A stretch of 64,000 nucleotides of DNA from the NCBI GenBank assembly GCA_017617435.1, contig JAFZWF010000014.1, forward strand, positions 573 through 64,572, given 5' to 3'. Below are positions 6,381 to 32,332 of this stretch, in pieces. Position 1 is the stretch's first letter. Every line of letters starts with the position of its first letter. Both the position numbers and the translations under genes were made by a program. The notes under the pieces were generated by a model. It did not search any database. It worked only from the letters and a program-made list of their open reading frames with translations, and had not been told where the DNA came from. Source of the DNA: Bacilli bacterium (GTDB lineage: Bacteria > Bacillota_I > Bacilli_A > RF39 > UBA660).

Positions 6381-8285
6381 TTAGTTCAAATAAACCATAA
6401 CTATTCCATTTTCTTTTGTCATTGTATCTGCTTTAGGAGTTTGTTTTACTATATTTGTTCCACTACCAACATATTTTACTTGAAAATTATTAAGTAACTT
6501 TTTTGCTTCTTTTATTTTTAGACCTGTTACATCTGGAACCATATAGTATTTTTCATCAAGCCATAAATATTCTTTTGGAATTACATCTTTGCTTTCTTTT
6601 ATATTTAATATTTTAGCAGCACTTTTAAAGACATTCTTTGCAATTGGAGCTGATACTGTTCCTCCATACTGTACAGTATTTTTAGGGTGATCAATTGCAA
6701 CATAAACAATAATTTCAGGATCATCTGCTGGCATAAATCCAATAAATGATAATATATAGTTTCCTTCCATATATATTCCGTTACTTACCTTTTGAGCAGT
6801 TCCAGTCTTTCCACCAATTCGATAATTTTCTAGATATGCGTTATGACCTGTTCCAAGGGCAACAACTGTTTCAAGAGCATACCTGACAAGATTACTTGTT
6901 TCTTCACTGATAACTTTATTTTCTAATTTTTTTGTGTTTTCCAAAACCATCTCATGTGAGTAAGAATCCTCTATACCTTTTACAATAAATGGTGTATATA
7001 AATAACCTCCATTTATAACTGCACTAACTGCTTTAACTTGCTGAATTGGTGTAACTGATATACCTTGACCGAATGCTGTTGTTGCAAGTTCAAGTTCACC
7101 CATTTTACTTTTTGTAAATAGTATACCTTTTCCTTCACCGCTTAGATCAACACCAGTTTTTTTCCCGAATCCAAATTTATCTATATACTCCATAAGTTTT
7201 TCTTTACCAAGTTTTTGACCTATAGCAACAAAACCTGGATTACACGAATTTTGTAAAACTTCTAGATAAGTTTGAAGTCCATGCCCTTCATGTTTCCAGC
7301 AGTGAAGTGTTGAACCAGACACTTTTACGCTCCCTGAATCGTAAAATGTATCATCAAAGATATTTATAAGATTTTCCTCAATTGCTGATGCATATGAGAT
7401 AATCTTAAATGTTGATCCAGGTTCATATGTCATCCAAATTGGTAAATTACGATTTATTGTTTCTATATCATAATCTTTATAGTTATTGCTATCAAAATTA
7501 GGTCTTGATGCCATTGCTAAAATCTCACCTGATTTAGGATTCATAGCTAAAATCATTGCGTGTTCGGGGCTATATTTTGAAACAGCAACATCAAGTTCGT
7601 TTTCGATTGCAAGTTGTAAATCTAAATCAATTGTTAAAACAACGTTCATTCCGTTATATGGTTCATGATATGATTCACTTATATTTAATCTTTTACCTTT
7701 ACCATCAGATAAATACTTTATTGCTCCATCAATGCCCATTAAATATTTATCATAATACGATTCAATACCCGATAATCCTTGGTTATCAATTCCAACGTAA
7801 CCTAAAACATGTGATAATACTTCTTTATAAGGATAATATCTTTTACCTTCTTTAAGTAAATATACGCCATCAAGATTCAGTTCATTTATTTTATCTGCTA
7901 TATCATATGATAAACTTCTTCCCTCCGGATGGATTCTTTCTATAGATGTATTTTTAGTTATATGTTTATAGATATCACTATATGAAACACCTAAGATATC
8001 TGATAACTTCTTAGCAGTATATTCTTTATCTTTAATTTGTCTTGGAACAACTATAAGTGATGTTGTTGTAATATTACCTGCAAGTAGTTTTCCGTTTCTA
8101 TCTAAAATTAATCCTCTATCAGCCATTATCGGAAGATCTCTATTCCATAAGTCATCAGCTAGTTTATTTATTTTTTTATATTTAAAAAACTGGATATAAA
8201 AGATTTTAATAATTACTGCTACAAAAACACATATAATTAAAGTAATAAATATTTTAGATCTTTGATATATTTTTTCGTAGTTCAT
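6381..8285 (-). CDS. class B penicillin-binding protein (FtsI/PBP2B/SpoVD type) with C-terminal PASTA domain
   Basis: 634 aa. N-terminal TM anchor, transpeptidase motifs STFK, SCN, KTGT and a C-terminal PASTA-like segment. First gene of the dcw block. murE is not located between this gene and mraY. Confidence 0.85.
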   Translation of the reverse strand: MNYEKIYQRSKIFITLIICVFVAVIIKIFYIQFFKYKKINKLADDLWNRDLPIMADRGLILDRNGKLLAGNITTTSLIVVPRQIKDKEYTAKKLSDILGVSYSDIYKHITKNTSIERIHPEGRSLSYDIADKINELNLDGVYLLKEGKRYYPYKEVLSHVLGYVGIDNQGLSGIESYYDKYLMGIDGAIKYLSDGKGKRLNISESYHEPYNGMNVVLTIDLDLQLAIENELDVAVSKYSPEHAMILAMNPKSGEILAMASRPNFDSNNYKDYDIETINRNLPIWMTYEPGSTFKIISYASAIEENLINIFDDTFYDSGSVKVSGSTLHCWKHEGHGLQTYLEVLQNSCNPGFVAIGQKLGKEKLMEYIDKFGFGKKTGVDLSGEGKGILFTKSKMGELELATTAFGQGISVTPIQQVKAVSAVINGGYLYTPFIVKGIEDSYSHEMVLENTKKLENKVISEETSNLVRYALETVVALGTGHNAYLENYRIGGKTGTAQKVSNGIYMEGNYILSFIGFMPADDPEIIVYVAIDHPKNTVQYGGTVSAPIAKNVFKSAAKILNIKESKDVIPKEYLWLDEKYYMVPDVTGLKIKEAKKLLNNFQVKYVGSGTNIVKQTPKADTMTKENGIVMVYLN

Positions 8286-8324
8286 ATATTTGTTTTCCTT
8301 TAAACAAATATATGAACTAATAAA

Positions 8325-8353
8325 TAAAAAAATGCATCACTAAAGTGATGCAT
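8325..8353 (-). terminator. rho-independent terminator after the FNT-like gene
   Basis: ATGCATCAC-taaa-GTGATGCAT stem + 7-nt T-run on the minus strand. Confidence 0.65.
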
Positions 8354-8362
8354 AAGTATATT

Positions 8363-8938
8363 TTAATTAGAGTCTTTTGAAATATACCACATTAATATTG
8401 AACCAACAAAATTTCCAATAATACATATTATTATTGATAAATCAAATCCTCTTGCAACTCCCATTGTTATGATATTTGCAATGCAGTGCTGAAAACCGCA
8501 GAATATAAATAGTGGAATTCCAAAGATTATTCCAAGAGGTGTTCCTTTTTTATACATAAGAACTGCAATATACATTATTATTCCACATAGAATTGATTTA
8601 ACAAAAAACGAATAACTTACTTCCCACGATGCAACTTTAGATATTGCTGCATTATATACATCAACATCAATTGATGAAAAAAGTAAACCAACTAAATAAC
8701 CTGCTAGTAAATTAACAATTAGAATAATTATTAAATCTAGTGGTTTGATTTTATCTTGAAATAAAAATCCACACTTTCCGGTAAATAAGTTTTGACCCAT
8801 ATAGCATACACCTAAAAGTCCTAGTGAAAAAATAACTGGTCCAATTGGACTTCCAAGTTTAAGTAATGCATAATCACCTAGTGCAATTAAAATAGCCGCC
8901 CCTATACTCTTTCTAATTAACTCTTCTTTCTTTTTCAT
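8363..8938 (-). CDS. short formate/nitrite transporter (FNT) family-like membrane protein
   Basis: 191 aa. Contains both FNT signature regions (GQNLFTGK and GFQHCIANI) but is about 70 aa shorter than canonical FNT channels. Terminator hairpin at 8325..8353. Confidence 0.4.
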   Translation of the reverse strand: MKKKEELIRKSIGAAILIALGDYALLKLGSPIGPVIFSLGLLGVCYMGQNLFTGKCGFLFQDKIKPLDLIIILIVNLLAGYLVGLLFSSIDVDVYNAAISKVASWEVSYSFFVKSILCGIIMYIAVLMYKKGTPLGIIFGIPLFIFCGFQHCIANIITMGVARGFDLSIIICIIGNFVGSILMWYISKDSN

Positions 8939-8997
8939 GCTTACTCCTTATAACAAAAGTATAACATATAAATTAAAAAATCAACATAAAGTTGATT

Positions 8998-9828
8998 TTA
9001 TTTTTTTTCTTCATAGTGATCTAAAAATGAAGTATACTCTCCATTTTTCTTTGTACCAAGTACACATTCTAAATTAACATTATCCATAGCTTTATAGATA
9101 TTTCTATCTACATCCGGATTATCTTTTCTAAGTTCAGTAATTAATTTTTTCATCATTTTTCTTTTGCTTGCACTTTCATCAATTTCTGATTTTTCTGTAA
9201 ACTTACAAGCACAATTTAAAAACTTAAGATCATTATAATTTTTCCAAGATATAATATCTTCTTCTTTTATATAGCACATTGGTCTTATTAACTCTAAACC
9301 TTCAAAATTATCTGAGTGAAGTTTTGGTAGCATAGTTTTAATTTCAGCTCCATAAAAAAGTGATAACAGTGTTGTTTCTATAACATCATCAAAATGATGA
9401 CCTAGTACAATTTTATTACAACCGAGTTCCTTTGCTTTATTATATAAGTGTCCTCTTCTCATTCTTGCGCACAAATAACATGGTGCTTTAGATGGAACGT
9501 TATAAACTACATCAAAGATATCTGTTTCAAACATTTCAAGGGGAATATTTAAAAGTTTTGCATTATTTATTATTAAATTTCTATTTTCCTCTTTATATCC
9601 TGGGTTCATTGAAACATATACGGCATCAAAATGAATCTTACCATGTTTTTTTAGTTCTTGAATACATTTAGCTAGTAAAAATGAATCTTTACCACCACTA
9701 ATACAAACCATAACTTTATCGTTTTTATTAATAAGTTTATAGTCTCTTACGGCTTTAGTAAATTTACACCAAATTTCTTTACGAAATTTTTTTATAATAC
9801 TTCTTTCTACTTCTTCATATTTTTCCAT
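8998..9828 (-). CDS. ttcA: tRNA 2-thiocytidine(32) synthetase TtcA-like PP-loop ATPase
   Basis: PP-loop SGGKDS and CxxC pairs (CYLCARMRRG, CACKF) typical of the TtcA family. Confidence 0.75.
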   Translation of the reverse strand: MEKYEEVERSIIKKFRKEIWCKFTKAVRDYKLINKNDKVMVCISGGKDSFLLAKCIQELKKHGKIHFDAVYVSMNPGYKEENRNLIINNAKLLNIPLEMFETDIFDVVYNVPSKAPCYLCARMRRGHLYNKAKELGCNKIVLGHHFDDVIETTLLSLFYGAEIKTMLPKLHSDNFEGLELIRPMCYIKEEDIISWKNYNDLKFLNCACKFTEKSEIDESASKRKMMKKLITELRKDNPDVDRNIYKAMDNVNLECVLGTKKNGEYTSFLDHYEEKK

Positions 9829-9911
9829 AATGTATTCCTCTTTTTTTCTTTATTAATTTTATATTTAAATATAAATTAATGCAAGAAAAAAACAACTTAT
9901 TTAAGTTGTTT

Positions 9912-10772
9912 TTATTTTTCACCTAATTTATATGAAATAATTGCTCCCACTCCTAAAAGAAGAACTCCAATTATAACTTCAAGTACTATAAACGAAATTG
10001 TTTGAGCTGAGAATATTGAAATTGGAATTGCAGCAACAGATGCAAATATAAATCCTAAAACTCCATAATATGTAATTGTTTCATGTTTTTTAAATAAATA
10101 TTCAAATAATCTTGCAATACCAACAATACCAACTACAATACCTACGCCAAAAATTAAAATTATAAATAAATTATGACCAACATTATTAAAGTGTGTTAGA
10201 TCTTTGATAGTTTTAATTACAGGTCTATAGTAACCAACAAGCATTAAAACAAGTGATCCACTAATTCCTGGAATAACCATTGTTCCAGCAGCAAGTATTC
10301 CTACTAAGAATAATAAAATAATTCCAAGTAATGATAAATGAGCAAAGCTTACAGCAAAACTAGATTTAAAAATAAATTCTGCACAAGACATAAAGATAAC
10401 TAAACTAAATGTAATTAAAAATACAATTATGTTATAAATCATTTTAGAATCAGTTTTACCTTCAACTTTACCTACTAAAAGTGGAATACCACCTAAAACT
10501 AAACCGACAAAGAATAAACATGTTGCTATAGGAAAGTGGTTAAATGAATAATCAATTAAACTACTCATTGATGCAATTGATGCAAGCATACCAAGTGCTA
10601 TAGGTATTATAAATTTTAAATTCTTTTTAAAGTTTTTAAATAAGTGACCTAAAGCACCAATAAATTCTTCATATATACCAAGAATTATTGCAAGGGTTCC
10701 TCCACTTACACCTGGAATAATATTAGCTATTCCCATAATGAATCCTTTAATAAATAAAATAATACTTTTCAT
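9912..10772 (-). CDS. DUF368 family membrane protein (putative polyprenyl/undecaprenyl-phosphate transporter, PopT-like)
   Basis: Internal duplication with PGVSGGT / PGISGS motifs characteristic of DUF368. 286 aa, polytopic. Confidence 0.65.
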   Translation of the reverse strand: MKSIILFIKGFIMGIANIIPGVSGGTLAIILGIYEEFIGALGHLFKNFKKNLKFIIPIALGMLASIASMSSLIDYSFNHFPIATCLFFVGLVLGGIPLLVGKVEGKTDSKMIYNIIVFLITFSLVIFMSCAEFIFKSSFAVSFAHLSLLGIILLFLVGILAAGTMVIPGISGSLVLMLVGYYRPVIKTIKDLTHFNNVGHNLFIILIFGVGIVVGIVGIARLFEYLFKKHETITYYGVLGFIFASVAAIPISIFSAQTISFIVLEVIIGVLLLGVGAIISYKLGEK

Positions 10773-27031: not shown

Positions 27032-27778
27032 ATGAAGAAAATCGTAATTCAATTTATACTTATATTTACAATATTATTTGTTTTATTTAAATATAATTAT
27101 GAAATAAAAGTAAATTTATATAATACATTAATTAATATTATGAGAAATATACTTCCATCTATGTTTCCTATTTTGTTCATAACTAATTATATTAATGAAA
27201 ATATAAATATAAAAAATAAAGTAATTAAATTTATATCACTTTCGCTTTCTTTTTCACCTAGTAATATATTACTTTCATTAAATAATAAAGAAATTATATT
27301 TTCATCAAACATTAATACTTTATTTTCATTTATTATGTTAAAGCAAATGTTTAATAAATACACTGCCCTTAAAATAATTATGGTAAATTTAATTATAAAT
27401 TATATATTTTTATTTAAATCAATAATAATAGAAAATAAAAAAATAACTAATAAAGATATTTCATACTTAATTAAAAAAACTACTGAGGGAATGATTAACA
27501 TTTGTGGAACTATAGTGTTCTTTAATATTATTATTTCAATTTTTAATATATTTTTTAAAAGCAAAATAATTGTATTTGCTGAAATATGTAATGGATTTAA
27601 TATAATTAAAAAATTTAAAAAACATAAATTATTTTATGCAACACTACTTAATAGTTTTGGTGGTTTATCAATATATTTTCAAATGAAATCTATTAATAAT
27701 AATTTTAAATATAAAATTATTTTATATAAATTCATCATTTCATTATTAATCACTTGTATAACACTACTTATAATTTAA
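27032..27778 (+). CDS. polytopic membrane protein (possibly Gate/nucleoside-recognition-domain type, YlbJ-like)
   Basis: 248 aa, very hydrophobic. Divergent from the ylbL-like gene. Followed by the bidirectional terminator at 27775..27813. Confidence 0.4.
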   Translation: MKKIVIQFILIFTILFVLFKYNYEIKVNLYNTLINIMRNILPSMFPILFITNYINENINIKNKVIKFISLSLSFSPSNILLSLNNKEIIFSSNINTLFSFIMLKQMFNKYTALKIIMVNLIINYIFLFKSIIIENKKITNKDISYLIKKTTEGMINICGTIVFFNIIISIFNIFFKSKIIVFAEICNGFNIIKKFKKHKLFYATLLNSFGGLSIYFQMKSINNNFKYKIILYKFIISLLITCITLLII

Positions 27779-27813
27779 AAAAGATTTAAACTATTTTCAG
27801 TTTAAATCTTTTT
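27775..27813. terminator. bidirectional terminator between the convergent membrane-protein gene and the pilin-like giant gene
   Basis: AAGATTTAAACT-attttc-AGTTTAAATCTT, a 12-bp perfect stem with flanking A/T runs. Confidence 0.6.
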
Positions 27814-27816
27814 AAA

Positions 27817-30453
27817 TTATTCTACAAAGCGGTAATCAGCTTTTACTTCTTCTAATGTTTTAGTTGTAAATGATAGGTAGTATATTTTACCTGTATTATT
27901 ACTTTCAGTAGCATTTGTATAACAATCTGTATAGAATTTTAAGTCATTTCTTGTTTCACCACTAATATCAGCAGCATAAATATCAGATGCTACATTTTCA
28001 AAAGTAGGTTTATAGAATGTTCTTCCACTTAAATTTACATTATATGGATCACTACTAAAACCAATACGTCCACCAGTATAGAAGTTTTCTTTTCTTATTA
28101 TAACTGTATTATATAGTGATAAATCAATTGTATCAGTATATAAAATATTGTATACACCAACACCACCATTAAATATAATAGCATCGTTTGCAAATGTTGC
28201 ACGTTTTGCTGGATTATTATCATCAAGCCTATGTTCATTATGAAGTGATTCATATGAAATACCATTTGAATAATATACGTGGTTGGAATAATCTATTGTG
28301 TTTCCTCTTCCAACATATGTAACTTTTGCATAACCATTACCAATTTTCATCTTTTTAGGTGTTGGTTCGCGAGTTGCTTCTGATGCTGCAACAGCAACAG
28401 TTTTTGTAAGTGGAGATGTACTTGTAGTACAGTTAGTTGATGTGTTAATGCAAATCATTAAACCATCAGAAACATAACCGCTACCAATATAACTAGTTCC
28501 ACCACCAGCTCCAGCACAAGCTTTGCCAGAAGAACCTCCACCATATAGGCCTCCGCCACCACCGGCTCCACCATATGTTGGACTTAAGAATCTTGCACCA
28601 TTTCCAAATGTTCCAGAGTTATCAGGATTACTTGTTGTGTATCCACCAGATGATTGAGTTGCTCCAGTTCCAGATTCGTTAGTTGTACAAGCGTTTAAAC
28701 CTGTATTTCCAGTTATACCTCCAGCAGATCCACCTTTTGCATTTCCTTGAGTGGCACTACCTCCACCACCTCCAGCAGCAACAAGTAAATTATTTAAATC
28801 ATTTTCAAAATCTTCAAGTGGTCCAGATGTTAAAGCAATATGTGTTGCTCCTCCACCACCATAACCATTATATATATTAAAATCTTTACCAGCACCTCCG
28901 CCGTTATATCCACCGGATGATCCTGTAGGTTGACCACCAACATTAATATATAAAGTTTGACCAGTACTTAAATATACACTAGTAGTTGCGTAACCTCCAT
29001 AACCACCATCAGTATCGTTTGCGCCTCCACCTTGAGCACCCCAAGTTTCTAACTTATATGTTCCACTTGCAGGAACTGTGAAAGCTTGTTCTGATCCAGT
29101 ATAGTCATAATTATATTCTTTACTAATTAAAGTAATTTTTGCAGCTCCGCTTCCAAGTTTAGCATAACCACTAATTGGAAGAGCTGATTTATTATTTGTT
29201 GAAATAGTTTTAGTACTTGCTGCTGTACTTTCAGTACAGTGATAACAGTATACAACACCATTTGATAAATTAGCGTTACCAATGTAGCTAGATCCTCCAC
29301 CAGCTCCAGCGCTTGTTTTAGATGATCCACCACCGCCATATAGGCCTCCGCCACCTCCGGCTCCACCTAAAGGATTGTTACTTGAATCAGTTGTTGCATA
29401 GTAATTTGCACCTTTACCAAATGTACCAACATTTCCACTAAGTGATGCTGTTGTTCCACCTGCAGTTTGCGTTGCACCAATTCCATAATATGCTGTTGAT
29501 GATTCAGTGCTTATTCCACTTACACCAGTGATTCCACCACCAGATCCACCTTTAGATCCGTTAGTGTTACCACCTCCACCACCACCAGCAGCAGCGATAA
29601 GTAAATTTGTTTGATTTGTACTAAAGCTTGATAAAACACCAGATGATAAAGCTATACTTGTAGCTCCACCACCACCATAACCAATGACAGTGTTATTTGA
29701 TGTTGCTCCACCATTTCCACCACCATTATATCCACCGGTTAATCCATCTCCTTGGCCACCGATATTAATCATTAATCTTTGACCTTCGGTTAAACTTATT
29801 TCGCCAGCAGCGTAAGCTCCATATCCACCATCACCATCATATTTAGATGCTCCTTGAGCTCCCCATACTTCTAGTAGATATACTCCTGTTTTTGGTACTT
29901 CATATATTTGTTGTTCACCAGTTGATGACATGTAAGAATTTCCTATATTTCGAACCCAATAGATTTCAATATCATCAAGTGATGTTGAATCCATACCTTT
30001 TTTCTCTGTTTTAAATGTAATTCTGTAATAGTCATATCCATAATATGAACCATGTTTATAAATAAACATTGGATCGTACCATGCATTTGAATCACTCATA
30101 ACATATTTTTCTTTTAATAAGACAGTATTTCCATTTTTATGTAAAATACTAAAATATGTTTTCTCAACATTAATAGTTAGAGAGTTACCTGAACATAAAT
30201 TAAATACAATTACTGCTTTTGTTGAGCTAGAACCAGAAGTTGAGAAAGAACATATTCCTTCTTCCGAAACAATAGTTCCGATACTTCCCATTATTTGATT
30301 TCTTTTAACTTGGTTTGATCTAATATAACCAATAGATTTTTCATCATTTCTAACAGTATTTATTAATCTAAATAGGAAGACAACAACAACAGAAATAAGA
30401 GCAACGCAAATTAAAAGTTCAAGTAAAGTAAAACCTTTGTTTTTCTTTTTCAC
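27817..30453 (-). CDS. type-IV-pilin-like (prepilin N-terminal methylation motif) giant protein with two tandem glycine-rich repeat domains of about 250 aa
   Basis: GTG start with strong RBS (AGGGGGA). N-terminus MKKKNKG|FTLLELLICVALISVVVV is a class III signal sequence (G-1, F+1, E+5). Two internally homologous Gly-rich modules (YEVPKTGVYLLEVWGAQGA... and FTVPASGTYKLETWGAQGG...) each contain GGGGAT.IAL, LLxAAGGGGG, GGAGGGGGLYGGG and AGAGGGxSYIG blocks. Confidence 0.8.
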   Translation of the reverse strand: MKKKNKGFTLLELLICVALISVVVVFLFRLINTVRNDEKSIGYIRSNQVKRNQIMGSIGTIVSEEGICSFSTSGSSSTKAVIVFNLCSGNSLTINVEKTYFSILHKNGNTVLLKEKYVMSDSNAWYDPMFIYKHGSYYGYDYYRITFKTEKKGMDSTSLDDIEIYWVRNIGNSYMSSTGEQQIYEVPKTGVYLLEVWGAQGASKYDGDGGYGAYAAGEISLTEGQRLMINIGGQGDGLTGGYNGGGNGGATSNNTVIGYGGGGATSIALSSGVLSSFSTNQTNLLIAAAGGGGGGNTNGSKGGSGGGITGVSGISTESSTAYYGIGATQTAGGTTASLSGNVGTFGKGANYYATTDSSNNPLGGAGGGGGLYGGGGSSKTSAGAGGGSSYIGNANLSNGVVYCYHCTESTAASTKTISTNNKSALPISGYAKLGSGAAKITLISKEYNYDYTGSEQAFTVPASGTYKLETWGAQGGGANDTDGGYGGYATTSVYLSTGQTLYINVGGQPTGSSGGYNGGGAGKDFNIYNGYGGGGATHIALTSGPLEDFENDLNNLLVAAGGGGGSATQGNAKGGSAGGITGNTGLNACTTNESGTGATQSSGGYTTSNPDNSGTFGNGARFLSPTYGGAGGGGGLYGGGSSGKACAGAGGGTSYIGSGYVSDGLMICINTSTNCTTSTSPLTKTVAVAASEATREPTPKKMKIGNGYAKVTYVGRGNTIDYSNHVYYSNGISYESLHNEHRLDDNNPAKRATFANDAIIFNGGVGVYNILYTDTIDLSLYNTVIIRKENFYTGGRIGFSSDPYNVNLSGRTFYKPTFENVASDIYAADISGETRNDLKFYTDCYTNATESNNTGKIYYLSFTTKTLEEVKADYRFVE

Positions 30454-30465
30454 TTTCTTATCCCC

Positions 30466-31158
30466 CTATTCATTTAAGTTGACAACTTTGTTGTTGCCAC
30501 CAAATTTTACTGATGCAAATTGATGCATGCAGTTTTCACTTGAACACACACCATCTTTACCATTATCATAAAATTCAAAAATAACATAATAACCTTCAAC
30601 ACCAGGAACATAAGATAATTGTTTAAAATATCTTTTTGCTTGAGGATATAAACTATTATAATTTATACATGTATTTCTAGTTCCTCTTGCACATTCATCA
30701 ACATATGATAAATCATAAGTAGAAATATATATACGATATATTTGATTATCCAAAAAGAATTGTTGACACTCAGCCTTGCTTCCATCTTCAGTACTAAATA
30801 TATCATTTTCACAAGTGAAAATTCTCAAGTTATTATTAACCCCATCAATAACAGCTTGGCCATTTTGAGATATCTTTAGTAAATCTCCAAAACTTAAATA
30901 TTCACCAGGATTATCAATAGTTGTACTTGCTTTATTAACGATATTTTCAAACATTAAAGTTAAATAGTTTGCTCTATAAACATATAGTGGGTCATCATAA
31001 TATGATTTTCTTTTTTCTTTAATAATTACATTATTAAATAAAGAATATATAATTAGTAAAGCTGTTGATAGTATTACGATTGTAACCATTGTTTCAACAA
31101 ATACAAAACCATTTTTCTTTTTCATATTAATCATTCCATATCTATATAAGATTACCAT
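30466..31158 (-). CDS. type-IV-pilin-like protein (prepilin-type N-terminus). First gene of the two-gene pilin operon.
   Basis: MKKKNG|FVFVETMVTIVIL matches the prepilin peptidase consensus (F+1, E+5). The likely real start is the internal ATG at 31125. Only 12 nt separate its stop from the next gene. Confidence 0.65.
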   Translation of the reverse strand: MVILYRYGMINMKKKNGFVFVETMVTIVILSTALLIIYSLFNNVIIKEKRKSYYDDPLYVYRANYLTLMFENIVNKASTTIDNPGEYLSFGDLLKISQNGQAVIDGVNNNLRIFTCENDIFSTEDGSKAECQQFFLDNQIYRIYISTYDLSYVDECARGTRNTCINYNSLYPQAKRYFKQLSYVPGVEGYYVIFEFYDNGKDGVCSSENCMHQFASVKFGGNNKVVNLNE

Positions 31159-31230
31159 ATATGTTTACTATTCATCTATTATGTAATAAATTATATCATA
31201 CTAATTTATAATTATCAATTTTATAAAAAT

Positions 31231-31264
31231 AAAAAAACGTTAAGAATTTAACGTATTTTTTTTC
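31231..31264. terminator. bidirectional rho-independent terminator separating the ysxE-like gene from the pilin operon
   Basis: AAAAAAACGTTAAGAATTTAACGTATTTTTTTTT: 7-bp stem flanked by an A-run and a T-run. Confidence 0.6.
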
Positions 31265-31429
31265 TTAGAATAAAATATTATAGGTGTTGAAAAAATGTAT
31301 AAAAGACCAAACTATTTTTTTACGATAATCATTTTATTTTGTTTATCTGTATTAATATTTTATCAAATGATAATTACTTTTTTTATTCCTCTTAGATTCA
31401 ATATATTTATACTATTTTTAGAACTTGGA

Positions 31430-32332
31430 TTATTCTACTTTTTCATCTTGAGAATAATATGGCCACACTAACTCTTCTGTTTTATTTATATAATTAACTA
31501 ATTTATATACCTTAGATACATTATCAAAGTTATTATCAGTAAATTTTATTTCATATGGCATTGAAATAAGAATAAAGAATAGTTTAAGTTCATCATCATG
31601 ATAACTATAGTGATATAAATATGTTTTTAAAAGTTCACTAAAATTTAAATTATCATACTCTTTTTTATAAAGTTTAACCATATCAATAACAGGTGTATCA
31701 AATCTTGAATTATCAAAACTGATTAAATAATCATCATCATTTTTAATTAAATGATCTACTTCTAAATTATTATGAATTAAAGAAACTCTTTGAGTTTTTT
31801 TTTCGCTAATAAGATTAAAGTACGATTCTAAATTAGATTTACAAAATCCTATAGCGTTATTTATCTTACTATAATTATGTAAAAATAATATTTCGTGAGG
31901 TTTATGGTATTCATTTAGAAATAACTTATCATATATATCGCTATAATAATTTTCTAAATAATCACAATTATTTAATACATCATAATAAATCTTGTCGTAG
32001 ATATTTGAATCAACATCTTTTTCATATGATGTTTTTGCGTGCATAATAGCAACTAATCTTGCTAGATCATTACCTTTTTGTTGAACTGATACTTTTTTAT
32101 CTTCTACATAAGGAAAAATATCATAATTAGATCTTAATTCATCTTTTATTGGAATATAGTTATTAAAGTTTGATGCTTTTAAATATTCATAAGTGTTATT
32201 TAAATTTTTACATTTTGGTTTAATAACTAAATTCTCATCATCACAATAAAGTATTTTTACATTATTTTTAATTGTATACTTGTATGGTTTATATATTTTA
32301 TTTATAACTTCAAAATCATTCTTCTTTATCAT
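31430..32332 (-). CDS. CotS/YsxE-like (kinase-fold) spore coat associated protein
   Basis: 300 aa. Immediately downstream of and overlapping the SpoVID-like gene, mirroring the B. subtilis spoVID-ysxE operon. Assignment mostly by synteny. Confidence 0.4.
   Translation of the reverse strand: MIKKNDFEVINKIYKPYKYTIKNNVKILYCDDENLVIKPKCKNLNNTYEYLKASNFNNYIPIKDELRSNYDIFPYVEDKKVSVQQKGNDLARLVAIMHAKTSYEKDVDSNIYDKIYYDVLNNCDYLENYYSDIYDKLFLNEYHKPHEILFLHNYSKINNAIGFCKSNLESYFNLISEKKTQRVSLIHNNLEVDHLIKNDDDYLISFDNSRFDTPVIDMVKLYKKEYDNLNFSELLKTYLYHYSYHDDELKLFFILISMPYEIKFTDNNFDNVSKVYKLVNYINKTEELVWPYYSQDEKVE

Follow-up and report, generated by a model that had tools for sequence, protein, structure and literature searches.

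A two-gene operon in the 64-kb stretch of DNA analyzed here (the window) probably encodes two minor subunits of a type IV-class filament that form a tip-located adhesin complex. Its host, a spore-forming gut bacterium of the Bacilli that is known from ruminant metagenomes, is uncultured. Judged from its sequence, the larger product (pilin 2) is a modular pilin, in which an intact pilin module carries a payload grafted onto its last strand, and this payload includes two copies of the glycine-rich domain (GRD) of the receptor kinases ALK and LTK. The smaller product (pilin 1) is a minor-pilin-like partner whose gene accompanies that of pilin 2 in related genomes. A rare fold is thus placed on a predicted bacterial filament subunit.

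Operon structure and regulatory signals

Both open reading frames were present as described in the original prediction (Table 1). The full ORF of pilin 1 spans 30466..31158, and its likely start is the ATG at 31125 (leader MKKKNG, then FVFVETM), which gives a 219-aa protein in agreement with NCBI protein MBO4601124. Pilin 2 is identical to MBO4601123, labelled as a prepilin-type N-terminal cleavage/methylation domain-containing protein, and the NCBI annotation is prepilin-type for both. The GTG start of pilin 2 and its SD sequence were also found where they had been proposed.

Table 1. Features of the pilin operon and its flanks (positions in the window)
Feature	Position	Strand	Description
Bidirectional terminator	27778..27813	.	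AAAAAGATTTAAAC-tgaaaata-GTTTAAATCTTTTT; between convergent pilin 2 and ylbJ-like genes
Pilin 2 gene	27817..30453	-	878 aa, modular pilin; GTG start
C-terminal domain of pilin 2	27820..28305	-	aa 717-878; predicted beta-sandwich; least conserved part
GRD2	28306..29100	-	aa 452-716; best PF12810 stretch aa 463-713; ALK/LTK GRD fold, pLDDT ~85-95
GRD1	29101..29922	-	aa 178-451; one of two PF12810 stretches; ALK/LTK GRD fold, pLDDT ~85-95
Pilin module of pilin 2	29944..30453	-	aa 1-170; leader MKKKNKG, alpha1N with Glu5, beta-sheet ending in strand LDDIEIYWV
SD of pilin 2	30461-30466	-	GGGGGA, 7 nt 5' of GTG; overlaps pilin 1 stop codon
Pilin 1 gene	30466..31125	-	219 aa, class III signal; small minor-pilin-like partner
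Sigma-A-type promoter	31190..31218	-	-35 TTGATA, 17-nt spacer, extended -10 TGaTATAAT
ysxE terminator	31230..31262	.	A-run / ACGTTAA-attc-TTAACGT hairpin / T-run; insulates pilin operon from upstream gene

The operon is predicted to be expressed from a conserved sigma-A-type promoter and to have its own terminators. The promoter matches the consensus at 11 of 12 positions, plus the TG, and its -35 TTG and TATGnTATAAT are invariant across seven syntenic loci, although protein identity among these loci is only 44-65%. Terminators had been proposed on both sides. The downstream hairpin is strong, with a perfect 14-bp stem (-15.1 kcal/mol, z = -6.8) that none of 200 shuffled sequences equalled in folding, whereas the upstream one (31237-31254; -7.4 kcal/mol, z = -2.2) is present and, with its T-run, kept in relatives, but is weaker. 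The proposed location between the ylbL-like and spoVID-ysxE genes was confirmed as well: ysxE and a spoVID-like gene lie upstream, and a ylbJ-like membrane ORF (convergent, + strand) and a SepM/YlbL-like S16 protease gene are located downstream.

Class III signals and modular architecture

A class III signal consists of a short hydrophilic leader ending in Gly-1, about 20 hydrophobic residues and Glu+5. Both N-termini, MKKKNKG before FTLLELLICVALISVVVVFLF in pilin 2 and MKKKNG before FVFVETMVTIVILSTALLIIY in pilin 1, have Gly-1, Phe+1, Glu+5 and about 21 hydrophobic residues, which confirms the signals proposed for the two genes; no further signal of this kind occurs in the window. Gly-1 and Glu5 are invariant in 17/17 pilin-2 homologues and 15/15 pilin-1 homologues, and Phe+1 is also invariant across the 17 pilin-2 orthologues. 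In type IV pilins, Glu5 is required for assembly, not for cleavage, and these invariant residues are expected of a polymerization-competent signal.

In profile searches, pilin 2 scored above the cut-offs of both PF07963 N_methyl (31.7-34.4 vs 21.2 bits) and TIGR02532 (25.3 vs 16.3), in line with the original prediction. Its first 170 residues align over their whole length with complete orthologues of 157-215 aa, which end right behind the conserved last strand, and the two PF12810 stretches follow, so that a complete pilin module is succeeded by a recognizable non-pilin domain. The PDB matches of the pilin module profile were type IV pilins, including Thermus PilA over 84 residues (E = 0.0027). 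Type IV pilins have a lollipop fold, in which a long alpha1 helix packs on an antiparallel beta-sheet. The AF2 model of pilin 2 has a helix at residues 10-38 and strands at 67-148 with pLDDT 60-84, but values of 27-73 after the helix, the globular portion being modelled with only moderate to low confidence. Pilin 1 scored below the cut-offs (N_methyl 16.9 vs 21.2; TIGR02532 16.1 vs 16.3, borderline). Because its N_methyl score is sub-threshold, its assignment as a prepilin rests on the predicted alpha1 helix and on the invariant G-1, F+1 and E+5, which are conserved together with six Cys across 15 homologue clusters. Its AF2 model comprises a helix at residues 5-41 and then a 4-stranded alpha/beta domain (pLDDT 75), and the globular part had no significant PDB relative by fold or sequence, with no solved pilin matched.

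The payload of pilin 2 matched Pfam PF12810 (ALK_LTK_GRD) in two stretches at 211.6 bits against a cut-off of 24.5 (E = 2.3e-62), which bears out the predicted Gly_rich identity. GRD1 and GRD2 are 49-51% identical (BLASTP E = 5e-89), each contains about 25% Gly, and the DNA repeat blocks are spaced 795-822 nt; the original prediction of two diverged copies therefore stands, with a module of about 270 aa rather than 250 aa. The local GC spikes it described at the copies were also seen (0.40-0.45 within the repeat vs 0.15-0.29 in the flanks). The GRD family profile matched the GRD of C. elegans ALK (scd-2) in the PDB (E = 4.5e-8), and fold comparison with solved ALK/LTK TG domains gave matches, as foreseen. 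The Gly blocks were confidently modelled as non-alpha, non-beta segments with isolated bridges and superpose on ALK. A collagen-like protein was rejected, as it had been from the start: the sequence has GG, GGG and GGGGG blocks instead of Gly-X-Y triplets and has no collagen Pfam match. By its model, the C-terminal domain is possibly lectin- or carbohydrate-binding-module-like.

ALKAL1/2, the cytokine ligands of ALK/LTK, are metazoan, and the ligand of the pilin 2 GRDs must therefore differ from that of ALK. We know of no bacterial GRD with a known function or demonstrated ligand, and of no GRD pilin that has been studied experimentally. Compared with the ALK/LTK GRD (PDB 7LRZ, 7NX1, 7N00, 7LIR; PF12810), those of pilin 2 come from a bacterium, occur as a tandem duplication and are joined to a pilin, not to a receptor kinase, and they lack an EGF-like domain. 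The long-tail-fibre adhesin gp38 of phage S16 (PDB 6F45) has been grouped with ALK as a Gly-rich PPII bundle (PMC13243192). The snow flea antifreeze protein is another polyglycine-II (PGII) bundle protein. The likeness of gp38 to pilin 2 is by analogy only, as a PGII lattice recognizing a receptor at a fibre tip; gp38 belongs to another Pfam family and was not among the PDB matches of the pilin 2 GRDs.

Thousands of GRD homologues were found. About one quarter of the best 120 carry class III signals, and others bear the same payload on plain signal anchors or TasA/SipW-like signals. Modular pilins are a class defined by Raynaud et al. (2021, PNAS, PMC8179133), with Streptococcus sanguinis PilB (pilin + vWA) as the prototype, and their Dataset S1 already lists the architectures IPR012902-PF12810 (two proteins) and IPR012902-PF12810x3 (one protein), while Dataset S2 includes one PilY1 with a PF12810 module. 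In view of these N_methyl-PF12810 proteins and the frequency of class III signals among GRD homologues, the original description of the display as unusual was overstated. Pilin 2 shares with this class a class III signal and a small pilin module to whose C-terminus a bulky functional module has been grafted. It differs in that its payload is two GRDs and an extra beta-sandwich instead of vWA, its gene lies outside a pil locus, and its host is an uncultured gut Bacilli bacterium. Because modular pilins have already been described, the pair is a nice example and not a new kind of system; the gain is incremental, not conceptual, since the concept and the domain architecture had both been recorded before and NCBI annotates the two proteins correctly.

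Conservation of the pair and candidate assembly machinery

The pair is kept at the same chromosomal site, next to spoVID-ysxE, in related gut Bacilli MAGs, which settles whether the cassette is conserved there. Pilin 1 and pilin 2 are adjacent in 16/16 species-representative loci and are, by this measure of synteny, an obligate pair. At least 12 independent contigs carry identical, intact copies of both ORFs. Pilin 2 is ordinary-sized (157-250 aa) in most relatives, and one or two GRDs occur on it only in the close clade of the window; a minor pilin that was already there has therefore acquired the payload by grafting. Same-site orthologues carry no payload, a GRD with a replaced Gly core, one GRD or two GRDs, and those with zero, one and two at one site illustrate how a minor pilin gains a payload. 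Conservation of pilin 2 drops from alpha1N (83-85%) to the C-terminal domain (47-53%), which is consistent with a payload that would face outward. Related genomes also hold many GRD pilins of up to 1480 aa, at least eight of them in tandem in one relative (L013). These are typically orphan genes among housekeeping or sporulation genes (spoVIF, spoIVA and yqfD among the latter) with machinery not nearby, and some paralogues lack Glu5.

The 64-kb window lacks genes for a pilus ATPase, a platform protein and a prepilin peptidase, as the original prediction had stated for pilB, pilC, pilD and comG; nor was a major pilin found in it, and none of the four was found within 10 kb in six close relatives. 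An A24-like prepilin peptidase motif was absent from the window and from 32 loci, tad genes were absent from the window, and no CpaF of this MAG was among the matches checked. In the relative L026, the homologous pair directly follows genes for a ParA/TadZ-like protein, a CpaF/TadA-family ATPase (PF00437, 104 bits; TIGR03819, 164 bits) and two T2SSF-like membrane proteins, and the pair of L023 has a complete Flp-TadE-TadE-TadZ-CpaF-TadB-TadC locus 3.7 kb upstream; both pairs are away from spore genes. Bacilli MAGs from the same ruminant datasets contain Tad loci, in one case with genes for N_methyl proteins downstream of the locus. We infer that a Tad/CpaF-type (type IVc) system is the best candidate machine, with a Com-type system as the alternative.

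Tad systems are normally built from Flp and TadE/F subunits. Because neither window protein matches PF07811 and the Tad locus of L023 has Flp and TadE-like genes of its own, the Tad linkage may be coincidental. Gly-1 and Glu5 are common to the window proteins and TadE/TadF pseudopilins, but pilin 2 matches N_methyl (GFxxxE type). Identity as TadE/TadF pseudopilins was rejected, as PF07811 gave no match to either protein at E up to 1; genuine TadE matches were seen in L031 and L032. To our knowledge, Tad pseudopilins are small and are not known to carry large modules, nor is a Tad-type machine known to carry GFxxxE-type modular pilins. ComGD-ComGG minor pilins were rejected as well (ComGE 28.8 vs 49, ComGF 18.5 vs 80, ComGD 13.8 vs 70); ComG-family matches cover only the N-terminal 35-40 residues, and no comGA or comGB was found nearby.

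Proposed role and alternative explanations

A tip-located adhesin complex appears to be the most likely role of the operon. A prepilin peptidase encoded elsewhere would cleave both products after Gly, and the alpha1N helices would keep both pilins in the membrane until the filament machine incorporates them, Glu5 making the usual subunit-subunit contact. Pilin 1 would probably pair with pilin 2 and stabilize its pilin module, and the resulting tip complex would start filament assembly and present the ~700-aa payload outward as an adhesin, like PilA-PilC of S. sanguinis. In that species, the small minor pilin PilA is paired with the large modular pilin PilC (Ig-like and lectin modules), with or without PilB, and PilA stabilizes the pilin moiety of PilC in a model of a tip-located adhesive complex (Shahin et al., 2023, PNAS, PMC9934059). 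The window likewise has a small pilin and a large multi-module pilin whose distal domain is possibly lectin/CBM-like. However, pilin 1 has no sequence or detectable fold relationship to PilA, and the S. sanguinis genes are inside a pil locus with machinery whereas those of the window are not. If the payload is an adhesin, the GRD family could largely determine the attachment of these uncultured gut bacteria to host mucus, plant fibre or other microbes, and it would also offer a bacterial system in which polyglycine-II domains are amenable to study. For such folds we know of only two functional precedents: cytokine capture by a human receptor kinase and, by analogy, receptor recognition at a phage tail-fibre tip.

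Pilin-like surface display without a long pilus is possible, if rather unlikely. Here the class III signal would be an export and anchor device, and the peptidase-cleaved proteins would stay in the membrane through alpha1N or on a very short pseudopilus, as with T2SS pseudopilins or the archaeal bindosome, with the GRDs at the cell surface instead of a filament tip. Class III signals are indeed known on non-filament surface proteins of archaea. The scattered orphan GRD pilins without nearby machinery and the paralogues without Glu5 suit this explanation; the sheer number of orphans, with the tandem array in L013, is hard to place on pilus tips alone, and the GRD, which in other homologues is joined to plain signal anchors or TasA/SipW-like signals, has the look of a generic surface module. 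Nevertheless, the invariance of Glu5 in both orthologue sets is expected of polymerizing subunits, the constant adjacency of a small second pilin and the Tad machinery near the L026 and L023 pairs suit a filament, and anchoring in the membrane would require the protein to span the Gram-positive wall with a payload that has no obvious stalk.

A broader version of the filament reading strikes us as doubtful: in this lineage of gut Bacilli, the pilin module would have become a general handle for a large and rapidly diversifying family of PGII-lattice GRD adhesins on a Tad pilus. The window operon would encode its conserved founder, a tip pair that exchanges payloads from one species to another. 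As a corollary, the ALK/LTK ligand-binding domain of metazoans may have evolved from bacterial surface GRDs.

It is very unlikely that the pair is an evolutionary relic that was parted from its machinery in this clade, outlived it and has ceased to be assembled, being non-functional or repurposed. The machinery missing from the window and the neighbourhoods of six close relatives, and the lack of a CpaF of this MAG among the matches checked, would fit; that search, however, covered only a small fraction of the genome, the ORFs are intact and identical in independent contigs, and conservation extends to the class III residues, the cysteines, the promoter and the SD. Moreover, the payload (two GRDs and the extra domain) was elaborated within the window's own clade, which argues for ongoing selection.

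Even less credible is a sporulation-associated structure, in which both proteins would be spore-surface or mother-cell components such as spore appendages. The site between the ysxE/spoVID-like and ylbJ-like genes is kept in most relatives and other GRD pilins adjoin sporulation genes, but such adjacency is weak evidence because sporulation genes are densely spaced in these small genomes. The conserved promoter, TTGATA-17-TGnTATAAT, resembles those of sigma-A and not those of sigma-E, -K, -F or -G, the operon has terminators of its own on both sides, and the L026 and L023 pairs lie near Tad machinery instead of spore genes. Finally, an ordinary Sec-dependent secreted or wall protein whose N-terminus merely mimics a prepilin signal is extremely improbable: a charged N-region and hydrophobic stretch also fit a Sec signal or signal anchor, and many GRD homologues have such N-termini, but pilin 2 scores above both prepilin cut-offs, G-1, F+1 and E+5 are invariant across 17 orthologues, a charged Glu within the hydrophobic core is atypical of Sec signals, and the PDB profile matches are type IV pilins.

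Organization of the pilin operon

Both reading frames were found exactly at the positions given in the original prediction, whose overall interpretation of the operon was supported by our analysis. The ORF of gene 1 reaches 31158, and its ATG at 31125 gives a small pilin of 219 aa (pilin 1) with a normal prepilin leader (MKKKNG/FVFVETM; the slash marks the predicted cleavage site), the same form as that deposited at NCBI. After a gap of 12 nt follows gene 2 for the large modular pilin (pilin 2), with the proposed GTG start and Shine-Dalgarno (SD) sequence confirmed. This SD overlaps the TAG that ends gene 1, and the two genes are probably translationally coupled; the NCBI accessions of their products are consecutive (MBO4601123 and MBO4601124). 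The terminators expected on both sides of the operon could be folded as hairpins. The sigma-A promoter and the upstream hairpin are kept across loci whose proteins share only 44-65% identity, and the pilin pair forms a self-contained two-gene operon that is probably driven by sigma-A. The window has a GC content of 26% and contains division/cell-wall, sporulation sigma, and germination genes. An Rfam search of the whole window returned one tRNA and nothing else, and the PADLOC defence models gave no match.

Coordinates of the pilin operon, its flanking features, and loci of related MAGs
Feature	Sequence	Coordinates	Strand	Description
Pilin 2 (gene 2)	window	27817..30453	minus	878 aa; GTG start; SD GGGGGA at 7 nt
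Sigma-A promoter, near-consensus, extended -10	window	31218-31190		upstream of gene 1; TTGATA-17-TGaTATAAT
AT-rich hairpin + T-run	window	31237-31254		end of ysxE, before pilin promoter; -7.4 kcal/mol, z=-2.2
Perfect 14-bp hairpin	window	27778-27813		between convergent genes, downstream of gene 2; -15.1 kcal/mol, z=-6.8
Hydrophobic ORF	window	31295-31471	plus	58 aa
Polytopic membrane ORF	window	27032-27778	plus	248 aa
Pilin 2 orthologue	L007	5125-6291		syntenic, 388 aa; retains only first (HMM 9-56) and last (HMM 215-270) beta-strand segments of the GRD
Tad-type locus	L026	6234-11378		TadZ-CpaF-TadB-TadC; adjoins GFxxxE-type N_methyl pilin pair
Complete Tad locus	L023	358-10058		ends 3.7 kb upstream of GFxxxE-type N_methyl pilin pair

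The unannotated 58-aa ORF (MYKRPNYFF...LIFYQMIITFFIPLRFNIF...RIIWPH), which has a conserved SD (TAGGTG), sits between ysxE and the divergent pilin operon, with a convergent overlap of about 40 nt with the 3' end of ysxE. Its motif LIFYQ.I.T...PLRFN.F.L..E...RI.WP is kept in 10 syntenic loci, and the public records of L001-L010 have no gene called at this position. The convergent 248-aa ORF has a GC content of only 15% and gave no Pfam or NCBIfam match. Its position is conserved in all relatives (248-311 aa), and it may be a diverged YlbJ because it adjoins a YlbL/SepM-like protease.

Pilin modules and glycine-rich domains

Both proteins carry the predicted class III (prepilin) signals, with Gly at -1, Phe at +1, Glu at +5, and about 21 hydrophobic residues, and a six-frame scan of the 64-kb window detected no other GFxxxE-type prepilin signal or Flp-type signal. 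Pilin 2 scored 31.7 bits against N_methyl in Pfam (cut-off 21.2) and also matched TIGR02532 in NCBIfam, where ComG and Gsp minor pilins gave sub-threshold matches to its N-terminus only. N_methyl was matched by all 17 pilin 2 orthologues, and the PDB matches of the pilin 2 profile were type IV pilins. Pilin 1 fell slightly below the N_methyl and TIGR02532 cut-offs. In the 15 clusters of its family, G-1, F+1, E+5, and six cysteines are invariant, and its model (pLDDT 75) combines an alpha1 helix of 37 residues with an alpha/beta head. A Foldseek comparison with PDB structures gave no solved relative of pilin 1 (best E=0.76), nor did its profile match any PDB sequence at E up to 10.

The poly-glycine part of pilin 2 was identified, in line with the original prediction, as the glycine-rich domain (GRD) ALK_LTK_GRD (PF12810), which matched in two stretches with 211.6 bits (cut-off 24.5). 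The predicted internal repeat was recovered as GRD1 (aa 178-451) and GRD2 (aa 452-716), which share 49-51% identity (E=5e-89) and each contain approximately 25% Gly; the GC spike over the repeat is likewise real (0.40-0.45 vs 0.15-0.29 in the flanks). Gly-rich PPII bundles are present in ALK, LTK, and phage S16 gp38 (PMC13243192). A recent in situ duplication was rejected: GRD1 resembles its partner GRD2 (51%) no more than it does GRDs in other proteins (47-55%), so the duplication is old and not local, and members of the family typically have two to four GRDs in tandem. The pilin module of pilin 2 (aa 1-170) aligns end-to-end with complete short orthologues, which stop right behind a conserved last strand xDDIExxY (LDDIEIYWV, aa 159-167, in the window). 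When the C-terminal domain (aa 717-878) and the pilin globular part were each searched alone, neither matched Pfam at E up to 10. The operon encodes two class III-signal proteins, and in pilin 2 an intact pilin module bears a payload made up of two ALK-type GRDs and, distally, a variable domain predicted to be a beta-sandwich.

Orthologous loci and candidate assembly machinery

The host is an uncultured Bacilli MAG, and identical copies of the locus are present in at least 12 contigs of ruminant gut metagenomes. Conservation of the cassette, for which the original prediction had proposed a comparison, was seen in a 58%-identical relative that has the pair between ysxE and a ylbJ-like gene. In species-representative genomes we found 16 loci with the pilin 1 family, all from gut MAGs labelled Bacilli, Tenericutes, or Erysipelotrichaceae. 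In every one, a pilin of the GFVFVETM type precedes one of the GFTLLEL type, with synteny kept in most; the two pilins are strictly paired across species. Pilin 2 is 157-250 aa long in most of these loci and 388 aa in L007; L009, L016, and L017 have forms of 436-481 aa with a single GRD, and those of 878-888 aa with two GRDs occur only in the clade of the window. The L007 orthologue, in which a Gly-rich core of approximately 160 residues is swapped for approximately 95 non-Gly residues, represents a naturally occurring 'GRD without polyglycine'. Identity to orthologues is 83-85% in alpha1N, 58-66% in the pilin head and GRDs, and 47-53% in the C-terminal domain. Pilin 2 follows a 'module grafted onto a pilin' design, and species that are close relatives have swapped or elaborated its payload. 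A 156-aa 'minimal' orthologue of L008 was discarded as cut off by an assembly gap.

Additional pilin-like genes adjoin the pair in some species (L018, 1930-3617; L019, 8183-9954; L022, 9679-11154; L025, 10717-11910; L027, 1250-2293). Their products have N-termini of the form KNGF(I/A)xxSxxYSFF (G/F without Glu5), several end in a conserved ...RPVVYLKS...G.G...P, and none matched the Pfam families tested. A possible role for them is that of a cap (GspK/PilX-like) subunit within a larger set of minor pilins. L029 encodes a 710-aa two-GRD protein (7856-9988), in which a class III signal was not detected, directly upstream of two short paired pilins of 160 and 187 aa; the GRD gene there is separate from the pilins rather than fused.

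In line with the original prediction, no assembly genes were found in the window: tblastn for a T2SSE-family ATPase was negative, and a Pfam search of the window ORFs not named by eye gave no match suggestive of pilus genes. The tblastn search replaced a strict motif screen (PilB-type Walker/GE[IM]RD, A24 GGGDxK), which misses the divergent ATPase of L026. In this relative, four genes directly before the pair encode a ParA/MinD/CpaE-like ATPase, a CpaF/TadA-family ATPase (PF00437, 104 bits; best NCBIfam TIGR03819, 164 bits, under the cut-off of 373), and two membrane proteins, both of which match T2SSF weakly. The Walker A motif of the L026 ATPase is degenerate (GTPFSGRTT). The L023 locus comprises a Flp-type pilin (KG/QALVEY), two TadE-like genes, TadZ, CpaF, TadB, and TadC. 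The pilin pair is linked to Tad machinery in these two species. Further canonical Tad loci are present in Bacilli MAGs of the same ruminant datasets, and N_methyl proteins are encoded right behind one of these loci. Of ten NCBI-sourced matches to the CpaF-like ATPase of L026, two carried an accession (MBQ6841200 and MBP3920629), neither near MBO46011xx and together too few to speak to a CpaF of the window MAG. We regard a Tad-type system as the best candidate machine, with a Com-type system as the alternative.

Proposed function and the wider GRD family

We propose that an A24 peptidase would cleave both prepilins after Gly, upon which alpha1N would leave the membrane and the subunits would enter a filament; polymerization rather than mere cleavage is suggested because Glu5 is invariant. 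Pilin 1 would stabilize the pilin moiety of pilin 2, and the resulting tip complex would prime assembly and display the payload as an adhesin. Precedents in S. sanguinis are PilA-PilC-PilB for the tip complex (PMC9934059) and PilB for the modular pilin (PMC8179133).

The main rival explanation is surface display of the GRDs with no long pilus involved; it is favoured by the many orphan paralogues in the wider family and by the non-pilin anchors that also carry this payload. Among 8000 candidates scored, 3018 GRD homologues had E<=1e-5, all from metagenomes or MAGs. The best 120 most commonly have two tandem GRDs (90), followed by three (21) and four (10). A G/FxxxE signal is present in at least 26 of these 120, further ones have A/F or G/F without Glu5, and the remainder have signal anchors or TasA/SipW-like N-termini. 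In other relatives, single orphan GRD pilins lie between housekeeping and sporulation genes. A role in sporulation is unlikely given the type of promoter and, in L026 and L023, the position of the pair away from spore genes, and an evolutionary relic is unlikely in light of the conservation and clade-specific elaboration.

The label 'unusual' given to the pilin in the original prediction was too strong. Its N_methyl-PF12810 architecture is already on record among modular pilins (Raynaud et al., 2021; PMC8179133), where Dataset S1 lists IPR012902-PF12810 (2 proteins) and IPR012902-PF12810x3 (1 protein) and Dataset S2 a PilY1 with PF12810, and the two proteins are annotated at NCBI as 'prepilin-type N-terminal cleavage/methylation domain-containing protein'. 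Our literature search found no study of what any bacterial PF12810 protein does, and a main-text mention of PF12810 only in a single, unrelated paper. What the present analysis adds is a natural orthologue series showing payload acquisition, a conserved small partner pilin, the Tad linkage of the pair, and the extent to which GRD pilins have expanded in gut Bacilli.

Many two-GRD homologues (P0025, P0040, P0077, P0099, P0109, and others) have N-termini such as ...MVIGYAAYNTTINIYGNGKL or ...GVTYAFF/TYAIFT in place of a prepilin signal. Since these N-termini resemble TasA/camelysin (SipW-type) signals, the GRD payload may also be carried on a second kind of Gram-positive fibre. Another Bacilli MAG locus, L013 (1-12106), contains at least eight consecutive GRD genes in tandem (402-747 aa), six of them with an N_methyl match, and looks like a paralogous adhesin repertoire; no pilus machinery adjoins this array or the orphan GRD-pilin genes. 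One protein of the array, P0114, is also encoded on a 1.04-Mb contig of MAG RGIG7548, which carries the pilin-pair orthologue L017.
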